Below are positions 29,304 through 59,734 of a stretch of 64,000 nt of DNA, one piece after another. The notes below the pieces were generated by a model. It was not told the origin of the DNA. It ran no database searches and saw only the letters and a program-made list of their open reading frames with translations. Positions within the stretch are counted from its first letter, which is position 1; each line of letters starts with the position of its first letter. Origin of the DNA: Tubulanus polymorphus (Eukaryota; Animalia; Nemertea); assembly GCF_964204645.1 (NCBI RefSeq), contig NC_134034.1:8568962-8632961 (forward strand). Direction: 5' to 3'. Made by a program: the position numbers and the translations under genes.

Positions 29304-30226
29304 GGGGAATGTCAGTTAGTCGTCCACTATGATATTTATTTATCTGTCATCTATAAACATAAATCAGCCTTAAATCACGATGCCTCTGTACTGTGCAGTT
29401 CCGAAATGTACTAGAACAGGTGGGCACAAGTTCCCACAGGATGAAGATTTGTGTAATCGGTGAGTGATAGCGATAAAAAGGCTTCAGAGTGATGGTTCAA
29501 AGAAGCTTTATAGACCTGGCAAATGGGATGTAGTGTGCTACAAGCATTTTACTGAAAACGATTACGGGCCTGCTGGTTTGTTAGGTGAGTAATGATCTGG
29601 TATTACATGTATATGCAATTTGGCTACTATAACAGGTGACCACGAATCTGGAAAACAGGGAAAACAGGGAAAACACAGGGAAATGATTTTTCTCAGGGAA
29701 AACACTGGGAAATTACTTTTGTCTCGCACGCGCGTTTTCACCGCGAATTTTCACAATTGTCTACCTGATTATATATCAAGGATCATATGGTAAGTAATAC
29801 TTTTCTTTTAAGTCATGTAATCTTGTTAACGTTTCAGTTCTGTTATGTCATTTCCACAGACATTTTAAAGACGTATTTCGTTGAAGTTCATTGAAGGTAC
29901 ATTGAAGATTAGCCTCCTCTTTCACTGCATTTGCTGAATCATGTTATACATGTACCTGTCATCACTTTAATGCACCTTGTTACTTTTAACCCATACCAGT
30001 ACTAACAATGTTTTAAATGCGCTGCAACTAACTCTTACACTTACTTTCTAAAGATGTCAGGTATCAAACCTATAAATTAATACATTTCGTGTATGATGTA
30101 CAGCTACATGAAATGCTTTGAAACTTAAGCTTTGCAAACCAATTTTTGCAACATGAATTGTTACTGTACAATCCTTAGTCCTAGTCCACACACTGTCTGT
30201 AGCAGGGAAAAACCACTGTTAACAGT

Positions 30227-30349
30227 ACATATATATATATATATATGTATGTATGTATGTATGTACGTATGTACGTACGTACGTATGTATGTACGTACGT
30301 ACGTATATATACGTATATATACGTACATGAATGTACGTACGTACATACA

Positions 30350-30385
<36 letters not shown>

Positions 30386-30391
30386 TATATA
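30227..30391. repeat. Compound TA/TATG/TACG/CATA microsatellite
   Basis: Seen directly in the sequence. Confidence 0.95.
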
Positions 30392-50422: not shown

Positions 50423-52480
50423 CGGGGATGGGAATATCCCGCGGTTCCCCGCGTTTTTGGACGACGAAATTATTAGTTTTCCAATTCATGCAAATCTGAT
50501 GAGAAACGGGGGGGGGGGGGGTAGTGTTGCCCAACGGTGATTGAGCGACGAAGTTTGAAGACTTCGTCAAGCTCTCCCTCCCTCCCTCCCTCCCTCCCTC
50601 CCTCCCTCCCTCCCTCCCCCTCCCCCCTTAGATTGGCTTGCGATGGATGCCGCGGCTAGCATAAAAGAGAAATTTAAATCCGAGTGGATGGACAAAGTGG
50701 TCACCTATCAAGACCACAAAATGATATTAGGGGACTGTTTCAAAAAGGTTCCTGTTGCCGGTGTTATTGAATGTAGAGTCTGCAACGGCCACCGAGTAAA
50801 ATATGCGACTCGTGGTGTGAATGCTCTTACAGATCATCTGAAATCGGCAACCCATTTGAAGAACCAGAAATCTGTTAACACTGTTCCGATCACTGAGCAT
50901 TTGGAAGCCCTGCCACTCGAGAAGCCCTCTTGTTCAACTGGCACAGTGAATAAACCCAAGCATCATGCATTGATGGCCGATCGTATATCATCTACAGAGG
51001 TACTGGCCTAAATTAAAACATTTGCTACAGCAGAAATTATAAAGTGCGAGGTGCCATTCTGTTTTCTGTACCTAGTATAAAAATTAGGTTTACCCTGCCG
51101 TTGTGCTCATAGAATAAAGTTTTTAAAAATTATGACAACTGTGATTTTATACGACTTTCAGGGCCAGCTATTTTTAATACAAGCCAATTTTCATCTTCCA
51201 GGCACTGTATTTGGCCTTCATCGCAGACAATAATTTGGCATTATCCTTGGCCCCTAAGCTAGTGAACTTGGTGAAGAGCGTTGACCAAACTGCTGTTAAA
51301 GAAGTTAATCTTTCAAGGCATAAGGCCAGTTGCTCAAAGGTTGGTTAGAGTTAACCAGTGGATAGTTGACATATTGACAATTAAAAGCTCATTGTAACTA
51401 TGGTATTTATCCGCTGGTTATCATTAACCAACTTTTGAGCAACTGGCCCCAGGCTACACGTACGATGAGCGTCATTGACTTATATTCCTCTGTTCTCCCG
51501 ATTTTGAAATCCTACGTCTGTGTGTTTCAGGGAGAGGATACTCTCGTCCATAAGCTCCATGAAAAACAGTTGAAGGTATTCCGTGAATTTATCGGTTGTT
51601 TTGTAAAACCAGATAATATTGTCAACAAGTCTGCTAAGAAATTACTTGAACTTGACTTAAAGATGAAAAAATCCAGTACAAAACCGTGTGACATGTTTGT
51701 TGGCGAAGAAACTGTCAAGGAACTAAACACCGAGGATGGAACTACAAAGAAAAAATTCTTTGCTGAAAACGGCGTTAATAGCTTGCAGGGTGTATATGCA
51801 AGGTAAATTACCAATCAACAGTCCTGTCCTGAAAGCGCTGGCATGTATCGACCCTTGCATAAGGTCAAATTCCCGTTGCCACCAAAGACTTAAAGGCATT
51901 AAAGGAAAAGTTCAACCTGGGGCGTTTCATCAAACGTGGTGATGGAGATTTTTACAGTGAACTGATGAAATTTGAGTATGAGGAAGGCCCAGGGAAAATA
52001 GATAGCTGGTGGCATGCCGTTATGAAAACGGGAGAATATCAATGTCTGTGTGCCGTGGTCAGAGGGGCTCTCAGCATATTTCATGGACCACAGGTTGAGG
52101 CTTCATTCGAAATTATGAATAATCTTTTGAACAAAAAAAACGAACAGATTGGACAAAGGAACCTACTCGGCCTATCAGTCAGTCAAATATGCATTACAGG
52201 CAAAAGGACAATCCGCCATTCAGCACTTTGCTCGTCCGGACGTGCATTAAATGCACGTCCGGACGAGCTATAATATAGCTGCATTGATAAGAGGCTCTGT
52301 CAGAAAATGCGCATTGCTGCAAAGAAACACAAAGCTAAGAGGGCAAAATCTGTAGAGTTGAAGACTCAGGTATTGGCGAAATATCAGCTCACCGCCGTCA
52401 AAAAGATCAGCAAGAGAAAAGCCAGCATGGCACATGAAGAAAATATTAGTAATTAGAAGATGGCGTTTTCAGATCAGAGG
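50423..52480 (+). mobile_element. Internally deleted hAT transposon
   Basis: CGGGGATGGG left end; BED-like CRVC...H...H (50643..51011); C-terminal IDSWW...Y.....ALSIFHGPQVEASF dimerisation-like motif; right end not found. Confidence 0.7.
50508..50627. repeat. Poly-G run and (CCCT)n tract
   Basis: Seen directly in the sequence. Confidence 0.9.
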
Positions 52481-52524
52481 TCGAGACACCACTCATCACC
52501 ACAAGTAATTTTTTCCCCTAATAA

Positions 52525-52851
52525 ATGGGAGATAGAAAAGCATTCTTAGCAACAATAAATAACAGAATTAAACCAGCAAAAAAACAATTTGAAATAAAAA
52601 AGTTAGTTGATGTTACAAAAGAAATTGAACATAAAATATTGAAATTAGAAAAGATAAAAACTAAATATGGAGAGAAAGTATCAGCTAATTTAAGCTACTG
52701 TAATGTTAGTACATCGCGAGAATTTAAAGTATTTTTACCCGATAAATGGGTTTCATTGAGTACAGAGGAATTGAAAGATTTAGAAGGATTTAAAATAATC
52801 TATCATGGGAAAAATGAAGACGGTCATCATGATTTAGAAATTGTTGATTAA
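52525..52851 (+). CDS. Small viral hypothetical protein
   Basis: Intact 108-aa ORF with ATAAATG start and the same composition as the neighbouring viral genes. Confidence 0.55.
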   Translation: MGDRKAFLATINNRIKPAKKQFEIKKLVDVTKEIEHKILKLEKIKTKYGEKVSANLSYCNVSTSREFKVFLPDKWVSLSTEELKDLEGFKIIYHGKNEDGHHDLEIVD

Positions 52852-53134
52852 ATAAGAAATAAAAATAATGAATATCTAGAATCCAAAATGACCTTAATCG
52901 TTTTACGAACAACTACAATCATACAGTCAAACATCTGTTACATGTTATTATAAGAGAGTGCTTCATTTGAATATTGATCAATCAAACAGGTGTTGCACAA
53001 CATTGTTGTTATATTGGATAGCTAGCAGTTATATAATAAGCACGCAGTACATACAACACACACAGGACAGGAGGATAGTCATTCTCTCTCGTGATTAAAA
53101 GGAATATTTCAATGTTTTTACGGTAAGTTTTAGC

Positions 53135-53423
53135 AAAACCACCCGACCTGACTCGCAGAGTTTTTAGGGGATAAGTGTCCCGTTATTGAGAGGCGCCACG
53201 AGATACCTATCCCCAAGCATTTCTACTTACACCCCTGTGACCCACACCTCGCCAATTCTCCTTCAATGGTTGACAGGAAACACATTATATTAAAGGCGCC
53301 TAATGCATTTCCTATCAACCCCTTACCCCCGAAAGGAGGATCGAAAGTCGAAACTGAAGGAGAACCACGGAGGGTGGACAAAGGTGCATTTTCGAAATGC
53401 CCCTGCAAGCCAAGCCCGGCGGC
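53135..53423 (-). ncRNA. Candidate Pol III-transcribed structured RNA (~290 nt) in the adintovirus intergenic region
   Basis: TATATAA 31 nt upstream; first T4 run falls right after the terminal stem; 23-, 20- and 17-bp stems with 12 G-U pairs on this strand; two GGCGCC loops. Confidence 0.6.
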
Positions 53424-53518
53424 ACTCCAGTGGTTGAATGAATTGCCTTATATACTTAGCTAAAACACCTAAGTAAATGTTGCTGGTGCTAAAAAATTGT
53501 GAAATTTGAAATTATGAA

Positions 53519-54109
53519 TTATTCCGAATGAAAAGAATATAAGAATGAAAACTGATAAATGAATTGTTCATTTATTATAGAAATATTTTTACTTTCAATA
53601 TTCGAAAATGTTATAACTCCAGTTGATAATAATGTCATAAATCCACCTAATTGAAATGATAAATATCCAATCCGTTTATTTAATTCAGTCATAACTAAAT
53701 AATCATTTTTTAAATCGGAATATAATCGATTTTCATCTTCAATTGGAAGTATATAATTACATAATTTACTATAACCTTTTACTACATTTTCTGATATCGC
53801 GTCATTAATTCTAGCTGTTCTCGCGGCTTCATAAATCTTAAATAATCTAATAATTTCATCTGATTTCATTGTATCTAATTCATTATAAGTTAAATTTTTA
53901 CCGACAAAATTTTTACATTTTCCAGATGCTATTAATATTTCTAATTGATGTTTACAGTAAAGATAATATTCATAATTATTATTTGTTGTAACATTATTTA
54001 AAGCACCATCATCTGGAATTAATTTGTTTTCTGTTATTCCTAAATCATCTAAAGTATTTTCAATTGGAACATCACCATTTTTTGATTTTATTTTCTTTTC
54101 ACCTACCAT
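53519..54109 (-). CDS. Viral hypothetical protein with hydrophobic C-terminus
   Basis: Intact 196-aa ORF in the viral gene array. Confidence 0.6.
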   Translation of the reverse strand: MVGEKKIKSKNGDVPIENTLDDLGITENKLIPDDGALNNVTTNNNYEYYLYCKHQLEILIASGKCKNFVGKNLTYNELDTMKSDEIIRLFKIYEAARTARINDAISENVVKGYSKLCNYILPIEDENRLYSDLKNDYLVMTELNKRIGYLSFQLGGFMTLLSTGVITFSNIESKNISIINEQFIYQFSFLYSFHSE

Positions 54110-54129
54110 TTATATAACAAAAAAATTAG

Positions 54130-54414
54130 TTGTGATGTTGCAACTAGAATTCAACTAGAATGTAACAAGAATTCAACTAGATTAACAAGCTAGTTGAAAT
54201 ATTGTTACTTTTTTTTATTTCTTGTTAAATCTAGTTGATTTTTGTTCCAACTACCAATAACTAGAATTCAACTAGAATGTAACTAGAATTAAACTAGATA
54301 AACAAGCTAGTTACAATATTGTTAAAATCTAGTTGATTTTTGTTACAACTACCAATAACTAGAATTCAACTAGAATGTAACTAGAATTCAACTAGATTAA
54401 CAAGCTAGTTGAAT
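54130..54414. repeat. Higher-order tandem repeat (AACTAGAATTC / AACTAGAATGT subunits, three ~100-115-bp units)
   Basis: Repeated blocks begin near 54141, 54256 and 54353. Confidence 0.9.
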
Positions 54415-55023
54415 TTAAATAAATTCATATTTAAATGGGTGTTGTAATCTAAATAGTAATTTTGATATTTTAATATTTTTCAACTTATCCATATATTCAT
54501 TATGTAAATCATGTGGAATAATATCATTTTCCTCAAGTGCATTTTTCATCGATTTTCTATCTTTATTGTAGAATAAAACTAGAAATCTAATGTTTTCTCT
54601 AAAGTCTTTAACAATTGAATTATATTTTTGATTTAAAACCAAAGTTGTTATCCCAAAATGTCTCCCAGAGAAAGCTAAATAACATAACTCACTTTCTCTC
54701 ACTTTTGAATCATGTAAATTTGCACAATCATCTATAATGAATAATGTATTTGATCCTTTATAAATATCTATTGCTATTTTAATACAATTATCTAAATTTT
54801 CTTTTACTGTTTTAGGATCTAATATAATAAATTTATTATTTCTAGTAATATTTCTATCATAAGTTTGATTAAATTCATATGTTGGACAAAATAATACTAT
54901 ATTATCAAAATAGTTTTTATAAACAGTTTCTAATAAATTTAATATAAAATAAGTTTTTCCACAATTTGTTACACCAGAAATTAACATATTATGAGGTTCA
55001 AATATAAATAATTCCTTATTCAT
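54415..55023 (-). CDS. A32/FtsK-like DNA packaging ATPase
   Basis: Walker A GVTNCGKT, Walker B LFIIDD, GRHFGI and the downstream Q motif; ORF intact. Confidence 0.9.
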   Translation of the reverse strand: MNKELFIFEPHNMLISGVTNCGKTYFILNLLETVYKNYFDNIVLFCPTYEFNQTYDRNITRNNKFIILDPKTVKENLDNCIKIAIDIYKGSNTLFIIDDCANLHDSKVRESELCYLAFSGRHFGITTLVLNQKYNSIVKDFRENIRFLVLFYNKDRKSMKNALEENDIIPHDLHNEYMDKLKNIKISKLLFRLQHPFKYEFI

Positions 55024-56120
55024 TTATATATTTTTAATTTTACTTGACAATATCCATTCATTGAATTTATCTGGCCATCCAACCCATTTTACTAAAGAAT
55101 ATTTTTTTCTTTTAATAGTTTTTGTTTTTAATACTTTTTCAATTTTATATTCTTGTTCTAGATTTTCGGTAGTTAAACTCAATTCTTCTTCGTAAAAGTA
55201 GCCATCAACTTCTTCACTATCTAAATCTTCTAATTTATAGACATATGGTTTTGTTGTTATTACCTTTTTTATTTTATATATTTCTCTAGTAAAATTTCGA
55301 TCGTATCCTTTGTCAAATATCTTTTTATACTTAGAAATTCTAACATTTTGACCAACTTTAAATTTAGGTTCACCAAAATCATTTACAAGAAATGCTCCAT
55401 ATAAATTATTCCAAACAATTTCAGCATTTTCAGGTTTTCTAGCGTCAATAGGTTTCATTCCAATAGAAGAATGATAAGAATTATTATATCCTTCCATCAA
55501 TTTTGGTAAAACATCAATCCATTTAAAAGTATTATTTGCTGTAAATTATTTCCACATTCTTGTTCTTAATGTTCTATTAAATCGTTCAACAACTGCTGCT
55601 TTATCCGATTTTGTTGAAAAATATTTAATATTATGATTATCTAAGAGTTCACGAACAAGTGAATTATCAAACTCTTTTCCATCATCAAATTGTATTTTTT
55701 CTGGTTTTAGTTTATCATCCGAAAGAAATTTTCTTAAAACATTTGATGTTTGTACAGCATCTTTTCTATAAAGTGGGAAGCTCCATACATAACGACTAAA
55801 ATATCAATTATATTCAATAACCACCAATAATCATCATTATCTTTCTTCATATCAATTAAATCTCCTTGCCCCTGTTGATCTACATAACTTACCATAGTTT
55901 TACGAGTTTTATATTTTCTAACAATTTTTTTATGTGTTGTGTATGTTGGTTGTTCTAACATAAATTCATTTATATCTTTATATTAAACTAAATCTTGTGG
56001 GATTATCTTAACTAATGTACATCTTAACTGTACAGAAGAATAAGCAACCGAACTCTCAGGGTTGTAATATAAATTTCTTAAATATTGTTCTTTAGTATTA
56101 GGAGTTTTTTTACCGCCCAT
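55024..56120 (-). pseudogene. Polinton-type retroviral-like integrase with C-terminal chromodomain, frameshifted
   Basis: LYYNP, Q.DLIDM, QFDDGKEF, AAVVERFNRTL, YNNSYHSSIGMKP, FDKGY and chromo motif YKIEKVL...LVKWVGWPDKFNEWI. Confidence 0.9.
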
Positions 56121-56161
56121 TTATATATCGTTAATTTTAACTTTATATTAACTTTATATTT

Positions 56162-57381
56162 CTAATATTGAATACTATCTAATTGTGAATTCACAATATT
56201 TAATTGTGCGTCAGATATAATATAAATGTGCATTTTGAAATTTTTGTCTCCTCTTTTCTTCGCCATGAATAATTGTATTCCATCTTTAGTGTTCTGTAAT
56301 TTCTTCCCAGAACCATGTAATGAATTATCCTCTGTTGTTCTAAAATCTAACCATAATGCATATTTATTGCCGGTATAATAATCAATTTGATTAATATTAC
56401 AATTTTCAAATGATTTTACTTTTTCATTCATAAAATGTTTTCTAATTTCTGGCCATTGATCAATCATCCTCATTCCTTGACAAAATATTTTATTTGCTAT
56501 TCCTTCAATAGTTATTTCTACTTTTGTTATTTCAGGAGTATAATAATTATCAACCTTTATTGCGCCATTAGAATATGTTGCAATGGTAAAAAATATTAAT
56601 ATACCTTTAATAGATCTTCTTGGGAAGTAAATATTCTCATTAATTATTTCATCATTTGCATTAATAGTTACAGTTTTAAATTTATCAATATAATCATATA
56701 ATAATGAAAATCCTTGATTGTATTGAGTTTGAATTGTGCTAGCAATATTTTCATTAGTTACTGTGTCATATTCTAAACATATATTCGATAATTTATATCC
56801 CATATCTTTAACAACGCTAGATAATACAATTTCATTTACAGGAGCAAATGTTATCTCAAATATAATATCTTCTTGAATTACATATTTATATAAAGGTGCA
56901 TTATTATTTATCAATTCAAAGTCAAATGGAATTTTATATTTGCTTCCATAAATCTTTTTTATCAAATTATCTGTGGCACGAGTTACTATTGCGTCATTAG
57001 CTCCTGATTAATTTATTATGGTTTTCTGATTGGATGCCTTGAAATATCATATTATTTCTATTTTCTTTAGTTAACCCTAAATCTTTATAATGCATAAATA
57101 AATTATAATCATCTAATGAGAAAACTGTTTCTGGACCAATCTTTATAGTTAATTTTTTAATCAAATATCTCCCAACATTATCAACAACATAATTATTATT
57201 ATGACCAATTACTTTTATGAACATAAAAAGTATTTTGTGTTAATCTAGGAATTCTAACATATAAAGTTTCATCGGGATTAATATTTAAAGGATTATGAGT
57301 AATTATATGATGTGATATTTCTGCTTTAATAGCATTAGATATTCTAGAAATCTTAGAAGGACTTATATAACTCCCACTCAT
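56162..57381 (-). pseudogene. Adintovirus/Polinton major capsid protein, frameshifted
   Basis: NPLNINPDETLYVRIP, Y.L.NI.LEYD, PRRSIKGIL and ALWLDFRT..DN.LHGSG motifs, next to the ATPase and integrase. Confidence 0.75.
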
Positions 57382-57419
57382 TTATTTAACAAAAAAATTA
57401 ATTATTTATTTTTTATCAT

Positions 57420-58338
57420 GTTTATTTTTTATTATTTTTTCTTGATATTTTTTGATATCATATTCACTAACCCAAAAATAATAGCACTTACAACTGTAAT
57501 TAAAAATAAAATAGTATGTTCAGCACCAAAGTTAATAATGTTTCCTGCAGATTTCAATATGAAACCAACAATTGATGCAATAATTCCTGGTAAAGCTGCA
57601 GCAGATTTTTTTAGATAATTCCCATAAATATTTTGCTAATTTCTTTAAACCATCCTTAACTTTATCTTGTATAGAATTATTATTATCTGGGGATTTATCC
57701 GGTTTATTGGGAGTAGGAGTAGGAGTAGATTTCAAAGCATTTGATATTGCTAAACCTATTGTTGTAAACAACATAGTTACAGCTGTTAGAATTGAAAGAA
57801 TTGTGATTCCTTCTAATTTAAATAATAATTTTATTCTATCCTTCAATGATATTTTAGAATTTGGTTTTAATAGATATCTTTTAAAAACATCTTTTAATCT
57901 TTTGAAATTATTACCAAATTCTTTTAATAATATATCTCTTTCACCTTTCAGTACTTCTAAATTATCTTTTAAATTATTAATTTCTTTTTTAAAACCTGAT
58001 TCTTTTTGTCTATATTCCATTTTAATTTTTTCTTTAATACTTTTTATATTTAATTTTGAACTTATACCAGTTAAAACACTTGAACTTAATCCTAACACGC
58101 CAATTGATATAGCTAAAGGTGTTAAAGGACTGAATATTGCTAGAAATGTTATTACAGAACTAATTGTAACCGAACCACTTATAATCAAATAATATATAAT
58201 TTAACTTTTTAAATATTTTTTCTTTTTTATCTTTAAGTCACTTTCAAATTCTAATATTTGTTTTTCTAAATATATTTTTAATTTAGTTTTATTTATAACA
58301 TGAGGAATAATATCAATACTATCAACTTTATCTTCCAT
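57420..58338 (-). pseudogene. Viral coiled-coil/multi-hydrophobic (putative membrane-active) protein, frameshifted
   Basis: ORF 57532..58188 has hydrophobic segments, a coiled coil and a PTPTP linker, and continues in another frame as AAALPGIIASIVGFIL...LFLITVVSAII. Confidence 0.55.
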
Positions 58339-58503
58339 TTATTTGGAAAAAAAAACTACTTATTAGTAATTAGTAAATTTATATGCTACAAATATAACAA
58401 TAACTGTTCCACCTAAAATCCAAATTATTTCATATTTCTGTTGTTCTTTACTTGGGGAATAATAATCTGATAATTTAATAATAATCTAATAATTTTTACT
58501 CGA

Positions 58504-59734
58504 TGTTATTTCGACCACATGGAATATATCACATTGTCCCCCCCCCCCTCCACTTCATATATCTTTAGGTTTAGGCCTTTTATTCTTCAACATGCTGGAG
58601 GAATGCTGTAGAGCGAAAGATAATTCCTCTTTGGGAGACAGGGATTTGGCCCTATATTCACAGTGGCAAGAATGCTCCAAAAAAGTTCAAGATCCACAGA
58701 AATCACTCGATGACTCTAAACTTTCGATACAAAAATGTAACGAAACATTAGACCTTTTGAAGAAGGCAAAATCACGAGGCCGGTGTCCAATAAATTGTTC
58801 GTCGAAAGTATGTATTATACGTACAATTCCCAATGCTATGCGGAACAATTTCATCGAATGCAAAGATTGTTCTTCGCCGTATCACAAACAGTGCGTTCTC
58901 AATCTCAGTGATCGGGATGATTTTAGATGCCTTGAATGTATTTCAGGCCGGCGATCTTCAGCTGAAACAATAATAAAACATAAAACTGATGAAATAAAAT
59001 CATTGAATGCAGATTCGAACAGAACCAAATCTGAAATAACTACAGCTCGTCGTGAATTGAGCGGGATATTCACTAAAGTTAATGCGTCAATTGGTCCAAT
59101 GACGAAGAAACTAAACGAGATTCTTCATGATATCGGAGTGGATAGGCAAGCCTATCACTCAAATAGTTTTGTGGGAAACCATATCCACAAAATGTTGAAA
59201 ATTGATGAAACAAACGGTATTAATAACCCTCAAAAACTTTGTAGTGTTCTCGAGGGTCACGAAGAATACGAAATATTTTACGAACTATTTCACCGATTTC
59301 ATAAGATGTACTCACTTTATACGGCTGCACGATTTCTCTCTCACAACGAAATAGATCTGCTTGAGAACATGTGTCACGATTTTGGCATATTCTTCACAAA
59401 AAAATTCCCTACATCAACGATTACACCTAAGCTCCACATGCTAATATTTCATGTACCAGAATTCGTCAGAATTTGGGGATCCATCGGCATCTTCAGTAAG
59501 CAGGCACTTGAATCGATTCATGCAAGTATGAATAATGACGTGCGAACATACTGCACAATCAGGGATAAAGTTCACCGGGCTGAACTTCTATTTATAAACC
59601 AAGGTTTATACTCAACAAAAACGTTGAAGTTCGATTCCCTTAGCCGAAAATGCCCTTGCGGAGGCTTTTATATGAAGCAGTCGTCTGATAGTTCAGTAAG
59701 GACCTGTAAGACTTGCAAGAAATCTAGCACCTGA
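58504..59734 (+). pseudogene. RAG1/Transib/Chapaev-like transposase with PHD finger (copy 2), C-terminal half only
   Basis: PPPLHISLGLG, CSSKVC..CKDC...YHKQC..CLEC, GVDRQAYHSNSFVGNH, ITPKLHMLIFHVPEF, GSIG..S.QALES, CPCGG..CKTC; collinear with copy 1. Confidence 0.8.

Follow-up and report, generated by a model that had tools for sequence, protein, structure and literature searches.

Adenoviruses, whose capsid and genome design are related to those of Polinton-like viruses, produce VA RNA, a transcript of about 160 nt that inhibits PKR and saturates Exportin-5 and Dicer. Among RNAs with interacting loops, HIV-1 DIS is a retroviral dimerisation palindrome, and phi29 prohead RNA (pRNA), which is essential, carries two different, mutually complementary loops. 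The terminal stem of VA RNA with its 3' tail is a substrate of Exportin-5 and Dicer (PMC7589676), and the enrichment of wobble pairs in VA-I, EBER1 stem IV and nc886 has been proposed to permit binding to sensors without activating them (PMC6599070). In MMTV the PBS palindrome GGCGCC contributes to RNA dimerisation (PMC4264320).

Host genes for U6, 7SK, RPPH1, RMRP and Y RNA have type 3 promoters (PMC12193147). In buffalo U6 and 7SK the TATA box spans -32/-31 to -25/-24 and the PSE -67/-66 to -47/-46 (PMC3958870), and sea-star U6 elements show strong sequence divergence (bioRxiv 10.1101/2023.01.09.523328). 7SK contains a repeated GAUC stem (M3) and a 3' hairpin (M8) (PMC8406779). The pairing of an integrase with a chromodomain has been described for adintoviruses (PMC8502044), and the accessory regions of Mavericks are variable (PMC8097293). 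PMC8502044 does not contain the word 'noncoding', nor PMC8097293 the whole word 'RNA'. A joint report of Polintons and VA RNA, or of adintoviruses and polymerase III, was not found in the main text of openly accessible papers, and in a wider literature search none of the matches listed indicated such an RNA by its title or the start of its abstract.

The Polinton-like element and its relatives

The window, i.e. the whole stretch of DNA analysed (64,000 nt), contains an AT-rich element of about 6 kb; the rest consists of degraded transposons, which suggests an animal genome, probably that of an invertebrate. The limits of the element were taken from the GC profile, from a step in read depth at 52448 and from the similarity to a related locus, L001, which extends up to 58475. 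Its features are the following.

52449..58530, no strand: Polinton/adintovirus-like element, AT-rich, about 6 kb, multi-copy; a partial, degraded copy with approximate ends
52525..52851, plus strand: 108-aa element gene, converging on the candidate RNA gene; two homologues at 67-74%
52860..53565, no strand: segment of about 700 nt carrying the predicted promoter, RNA and terminator, unmatched in related elements; lower end approximate
53519..54109, minus strand: conserved 196-aa element gene; eight homologues at 55-69% identity; its last ~15 codons reach into the RNA segment
54415..55023, minus strand: A32-type packaging ATPase, frame intact; PF04665 E 2.2e-13; 195 homologues
55024..56120, minus strand: integrase with chromodomain, in pieces here; whole rve+Chromo gene in L001, DNA 83% alike; upper end approximate
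56162..57381, minus strand: putative major capsid gene, three pieces here; Capsid_N E 0.001, below the cut-off; 415-aa counterparts in L001, L003 and L005

Integrase, packaging ATPase and capsid gene are hallmarks of Polintons and adintoviruses and are present, the capsid assignment being weak (E 0.001). A protein-primed polymerase, a protease, a pair of terminal inverted repeats and a 6-bp target duplication were not seen in this partial copy. The initial annotation had placed a packaging ATPase gene about 1 kb from the hairpins described below, which is borne out by the A32-type gene at 55023-54415. The 196-aa protein matched no Pfam family and gave no usable Atlas match. Between these two genes lie three direct repeats of about 86 nt (54110-54410), 66-97% alike and built of short units, with several internal inverted repeats and a folding z of about -4 to -6 on both strands; they are possibly a promoter or enhancer array.

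Other structures in the window lie outside the element. One of the degraded host transposons contains a 58-bp imperfect inverted repeat (51324-51448; 81%, 9-nt spacer), probably a MITE; it has a weak MIR6135 match far below the gathering score. Just outside the element (52230-52268), two perfect inverted copies of 19 bp flank a 1-nt spacer. Apart from the unit described below, the window folds most strongly at 30225-30391, a palindromic microsatellite whose two strands give similar folds.

A metagenome scan yielded eight related loci, all of them partial elements. The DNA beyond the 196-aa gene covers at least 1.4 kb in five of them, 640 nt in one and less than 300 nt in one, and one has none. 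Several carry ATPase, integrase and capsid genes, and the ATPases are about 80% identical. Neither GGCGCC nor DNA similarity to the RNA was found in any of the eight, and the highest GC content in any 289 nt of these loci is 27-43%, so that there is no comparable GC island. DNA similarity to L001 ends at 53566, and at the same place L001, L003 and L005 have a gene of ~130-177 aa and other accessory genes. Thus the RNA lies on an accessory segment of about 700 nt; judged by this break in similarity, the segment sits in an accessory slot of the element. Since none of the eight partial loci shows the RNA, it is not a core function of these elements. In the relatives (L001:8542-9572, L003:868-1257, L005:766-1811) the 196-aa gene is followed by the ~130-177-aa gene, which overlaps it and has a hydrophobic stretch, and the variable slot after that holds a deoxynucleoside kinase in L001 and an HNH-like gene in L005.

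Protein-led scans of viral contigs and of genome contigs returned no loci. A scan for the loop pattern in half of the viral contigs gave 120 loci, and the best stem among 149 motif matches in 128 loci had 6 pairs; in two further scans all 15 loci had at most 5 pairs and all 24 loci at most 4. These matches are chance only. The same pattern had no match in phage records. Two of the ATPase homologues, P0063 and P0082, carry the source label of Bartonella proteins and are likely host DNA in those assemblies.

The 289-nt unit, its signals and its other copies

The initial annotation had described two hairpins on the minus strand with near-identical loops and unlike stems. Both were recovered at 53320-53268 and 53214-53167. 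They do not form a free-standing module but are sub-arms of a larger, closed candidate Pol III RNA, whose parts and flanking signals, all on the minus strand, are listed here.

53469..53489, minus strand: stretch placed like a PSE (-66 to -46), containing CACC at -65; PSE identity inferred from position and four bases
53448..53454, minus strand: TATA box TATATAA, -31 to -25 from the first paired G
53135..53423, minus strand: candidate structured non-coding RNA, about 289 nt; predicted +1 at G53423, T4 run at the 3' end; 51% GC
53138..53423, minus strand: terminal stem closing the RNA, in which 53423-53401 and 53160-53138 form 6+16 pairs around one G-G mismatch; a short U tail follows at the 3' end; every pair has a probability of 0.83 or more
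53217..53400, minus strand: main arm, with helices of 7, 11, 4, 4 and 15 pairs and small hairpins at 53351-53341 and 53339-53326
53268..53320, minus strand: hairpin 1, contiguous 20-pair stem (53320-53301/53287-53268); 13-nt loop 53300-53288 with GGCGCC as its 5' part
53167..53214, minus strand: hairpin 2, 10+6 = 16 pairs around one mismatch (53214-53198/53183-53167); 14-nt loop 53197-53184 with GGCGCC as its 5' part
53135..53138, minus strand: T4 run, predicted Pol III terminator, directly after the last pair

The GC content of the unit (51%) stands against 21-31% in the neighbouring parts. On the minus strand it folds with a minimum free energy of -152.2 kcal/mol (z -11.5; 0/200 shuffles), against -93.9 kcal/mol for the same 289 nt on the plus strand. 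Sampling 289-nt folds at 150-nt intervals along both strands of the window gave 850 others, all weaker than this one; the runner-up, at -132.7, is the palindromic microsatellite. The 108 pairs include 75% of the bases, and the longest uninterrupted Watson-Crick run is 10 pairs. There are 20 G-U pairs and a single A-C mismatch (p 1e-5). Energy minimisation favours G-U on whichever strand is folded, but the plus-strand fold has the same helices with mismatches, so that the G-U bias speaks for selection acting on an RNA from the minus strand. We regard the unit as very probably a real and strongly selected RNA structure.

In the predicted fold, hairpin 2 is a side arm at a basal three-way junction, and the upper junction joins the two small hairpins and hairpin 1, which continues on its 3' side into the 15-pair helix without a linker. 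An internal loop of the main arm, AGUA (53227-53224) facing GAAAA (53393-53389), resembles, as we take it, a loop E / sarcin-ricin motif; a literature search on the loop E motif turned up no paper. The initial annotation had also noted a word GGGG(U)GUAAG before each hairpin. Such words do exist (53330-53322 and 53235-53226), but the second lies 11 nt ahead of its hairpin. In the full fold each of the two G runs is paired, in a helix of its own, and judged by this fold the words are probably not a separate motif; as pseudoknot partners they were dropped, the G runs being already paired.

The promoter positions were judged post hoc, once the ends of the fold were known, and a TATA falls in that 7-nt slot by chance in 330 of 20,000 shuffles. 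CACC resembles a PSE core in its four bases; a host snRNA gene for promoter comparison was not found in the window. A T run after the stem occurs by chance in 2387 of 20,000 shuffles (12%). The RNA has no internal T4, an absence shared by 1434 of 5000 shuffles (29%), and a second T4 follows 38 nt further on (53100-53097). Taken alone, these terminator signals are weak. Canonical boxes A and B are absent from the RNA, which has one loose B-like word at +78. The layout of TATA box, PSE-like position and T4 matches the geometry of type 3 promoters (PMC3958870, PMC12193147), and from these signals the unit is probably a U6-type Pol III gene that is transcribed.

Other copies were examined by aligning four sequencing runs (at most three samples from two studies, one of them possibly the source of the window itself) to 52300-54500. 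Raw DNA read depth was about 525-655 over the RNA, about 250-285 in the 196-aa gene's 5' half, about 2000 at the element end and 0-11 in the host flank. As the depth over the element is far above that of the host flank, many copies of the element exist, although depth is uncalibrated as a copy number. A contig of 364 nt across the RNA differs from the window at four sites, none of them in the loops; three face a stem partner, and all three can pair. Among the variants listed, the sites where most reads differ from the window likewise number four; none is in a loop, and all three with a stem partner can pair. The loop is kept both between hairpins 1 and 2 and in the majority copy. More divergent contigs, with about 81%, 86% and 95% identity, show that there are at least three subfamilies.

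In reads of other copies, different letters connect 53424 (-1) with hairpin 1, at 53318/53320 (18 reads with 11 starts for each join; the reads are 150 nt long and have 36 letters on their shorter side). Such joins agree with copies that share the promoter but differ in the 5' part, and they independently hint at a boundary at +1. In this subfamily the joining letters are probably fewer, and a shorter variant of the RNA likely exists. Some contigs bypass the RNA segment (joints 52808-53568 and 52863-53611, with loose ends at 53568), so not every copy carries it. Sites at which many molecules start or stop were not seen in the raw reads.

The twin loops and the possible role of the RNA

The two loops are one substitution and one extra base apart, a likeness beyond chance, since none of 200,000 random 14-mers of the composition of the RNA aligned as well. 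The similarity of the stems is not significant (5' arms 1560/20,000 shuffles, 3' arms 5137/20,000), GAUAGG being common to both. For every base of both loops the predicted probability of being unpaired is 0.91 or higher. GGCGCC occurs nine times in the window, within the element only in the two loops, and because these are near copies the palindrome counts as a single observation, not two. Inside the RNA neither loop has a better partner than this hexamer in a loop, and the loops can pair in every combination, at a computed -14.1 kcal/mol for the free duplexes. The non-palindromic half of the loop, which ends in AAUA, is also kept between the hairpins. The kissing or multimerisation proposed in the initial annotation is plausible in that the loops are predicted to be open and are mutually complementary, but twin protein-binding sites fit these observations equally well. 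A retroviral primer-binding site was dropped, as a preceding U is found only at loop 2.

Our best reading, possible rather than probable as a whole, is an element-borne decoy for dsRNA-binding proteins that resembles VA RNA and whose two palindromic loops pair between molecules. It is drawn by analogy, from a terminal stem like that of VA RNA together with wobble-interrupted helices. Host RNA polymerase III would transcribe the RNA of about 290 nt from the U6-type promoter of the element, and the transcript would fold into a closed, wobble-rich rod. Its 22-pair terminal stem with the short 3' U tail could give it export and access to Dicer, as in adenovirus VA RNA. That the RNA would bind dsRNA sensors of the host, or its proteins of RNA silencing, and not activate them is, by the same analogy, a little short of an even chance; G-U richness is common among structured RNAs and no pointer to a decoy role, and it counts against this reading that the element copy is broken.

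Loop-loop pairing itself has about an even chance. Hairpin 1 would stack on the main arm, with loop 1 at the far tip and loop 2 near the base; in the model hairpin 1 points away, at a distance of 61 pairs from the junction with hairpin 2. Two molecules should therefore be joined more easily than one is closed, and contacts of tip to side arm would give antiparallel dimers or chains. Alternatively, with the upper junction folded back, an internal kiss would be possible by length (41 pairs plus internal loops against 20+16+6). The further idea that the rod self-assembles through its identical kissing loops into dimers, rings or chains and so forms a multivalent trap for the host dsRNA machinery is doubtful.

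Other explanations have to be weighed against this decoy. The loops of the same Pol III RNA could be twin sites for one host or viral protein, the RNA serving as a sponge or scaffold and the palindrome being incidental. The entire 13-14-nt loop is duplicated, beyond the hexamer alone, and the hexamer abuts the 5' stem and leaves a tail of 7-8 nt; in HIV DIS, unlike in this RNA, the palindrome is centred in the loop. A 6-nt palindrome of any kind is found in 11% of random 13-nt loops. Yet the hexamer here is all GC, which happens in only 1.5%, and pairing is to be expected of two open copies, at -14.1 kcal/mol; we consider twin protein sites rather unlikely. A captured host Pol III gene of an undescribed family, multiplied with its upstream promoter as cargo of the element, appears unlikely. 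It would account for the abrupt start of the RNA segment where L001 similarity stops, for the GC content of 51% against 21-31%, for a read depth that is about twice as high over the RNA as in the 196-aa gene's 5' half, and for the external PSE and TATA promoter, which is typical of host genes (PMC12193147). However, the flanks of the RNA within the segment are as AT-rich as the element (27-31% GC), the depth gap could stem from divergent AT-rich coding copies that do not align, and there was no Rfam match at E up to 10. The Rfam search presumably covers the 7SK, SRP, RNase P and MRP models.

Hairpins 1 and 2 have their loops in common but not their stems, whereas miRNA paralogues keep stems rather than loops. 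This, and the lack of a miRNA family match in the region, makes it improbable that the RNA is a precursor of small guide RNAs, cut by Dicer in the terminal stem or the 20-pair hairpin into miRNA-like products against host or element transcripts, even though its 22-pair terminal stem with 3' U tail is like the stem that yields mivaRNAs (PMC7589676). More improbable still is a 3' UTR element of the minus-strand mRNA of the 196-aa gene, acting in stability, localisation or dimerisation as in oskar or bicoid. The RNA lies about 100 nt past the stop of that gene on the same strand, where the single AATAAA, at 53576, precedes the stop; but a stand-alone transcript agrees better with the closed ends, framed by a TATA box at -31 and T4, and with the read boundary at -1. 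A structural part of the packaging motor like phi29 pRNA, as suggested in the initial annotation, is very improbable. The ATPase gene is only about 1 kb away and two loops could build rings, but none of the eight related loci, which are partial, has GGCGCC, a GC island or such an RNA, although several carry ATPase, integrase and capsid genes. Within the same host, the place of the segment is taken by other sequence in some copies, and we know of no RNA requirement in A32/FtsK-type motors. From this distribution an obligatory packaging RNA is unlikely. The least probable explanation of all is a decayed DNA inverted repeat or a single-stranded-DNA structure without any role as RNA. The window does contain other strong DNA palindromes, and the 289 nt fold as single-stranded DNA at -58.7, but a decaying palindrome should not give 20 G-U against one A-C, and the branched fold, the spacing of promoter and terminator and the absence of a pile-up of read starts or ends also speak against it.

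If the RNA is made, poorly understood animal viruses gain a defined counter-defence or regulatory RNA, and the VA/EBER design is extended to another branch of DNA viruses, with viral use of a U6-type promoter. If the idea of the multivalent trap is true, an invertebrate virus would have a counterpart of adenovirus VA RNA that assembles itself; a single rod with two identical sticky loops would be a natural self-assembling RNA. As the RNA is short and easily transcribed, dimer formation and protein partners are directly testable.

Comparison with known systems

Rfam had nothing at gathering in the window and no credible match in the RNA region at E up to 10. Covariance models of SRP, RNase P, RNase MRP, ribozymes and miRNAs gave no match, and ARAGORN no tRNA. 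HDV, hammerhead and hairpin ribozymes were dropped for want of an Rfam match, and an IRES was dropped because no ORF of at least 60 aa begins downstream on that strand within the element.

The element shares with adintoviruses and Maverick-Polintons the integrase with chromodomain, the packaging ATPase, the capsid gene, the AT-richness and the variable accessory genes (PMC8502044, PMC8097293), whereas this copy is without a visible polymerase, protease or terminal repeat pair. As with phi29 prohead RNA, two loops per molecule could link several RNAs and a packaging ATPase gene is nearby; the loops here, however, are alike, and the related loci, all partial, show no such RNA. The hexamer is the same GC palindrome as in MMTV and is likewise open in the predicted monomer (PMC4264320). 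In contrast to the retroviral palindromes there are two loops per molecule instead of one, the hexamer is at the 5' edge of a 13-14-nt loop, and the carrier is a small RNA that stands alone in a DNA element, not the leader of a genomic RNA.

Host type 3 Pol III genes have in common with this locus a TATA box at -31 to -25, a G start and a T4 end; the putative PSE, at -66 to -46, agrees in position. The length is near that of 7SK and MRP, and the 5' end is paired with the 3' end as in the closed 7SK model (PMC8406779). Unlike these genes, the RNA is found in a multi-copy mobile element and has no Rfam match; 7SK membership was rejected, with a single GAUC, no 3' hairpin between closing stem and U tail, and no Rfam match.

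Membership in the VA RNAs was likewise rejected, as there are no internal boxes and no Rfam VA match and the fold is not the three-domain fold with a GGGU-ACCC stem. Adenovirus VA RNA uses internal boxes A and B, this RNA an upstream TATA/PSE; this RNA is longer, with about 289 nt, lacks a GGGU-ACCC central stem in the VA order and has two duplicated palindromic loops, and its host is likely an invertebrate. Both have a U4 end of the Pol III type, are closed by a terminal stem that bears a 3' tail, and contain long helices interrupted by wobbles as well as a branched junction (PMC7589676, PMC6599070). By this analogy, the RNA may work like VA RNA.
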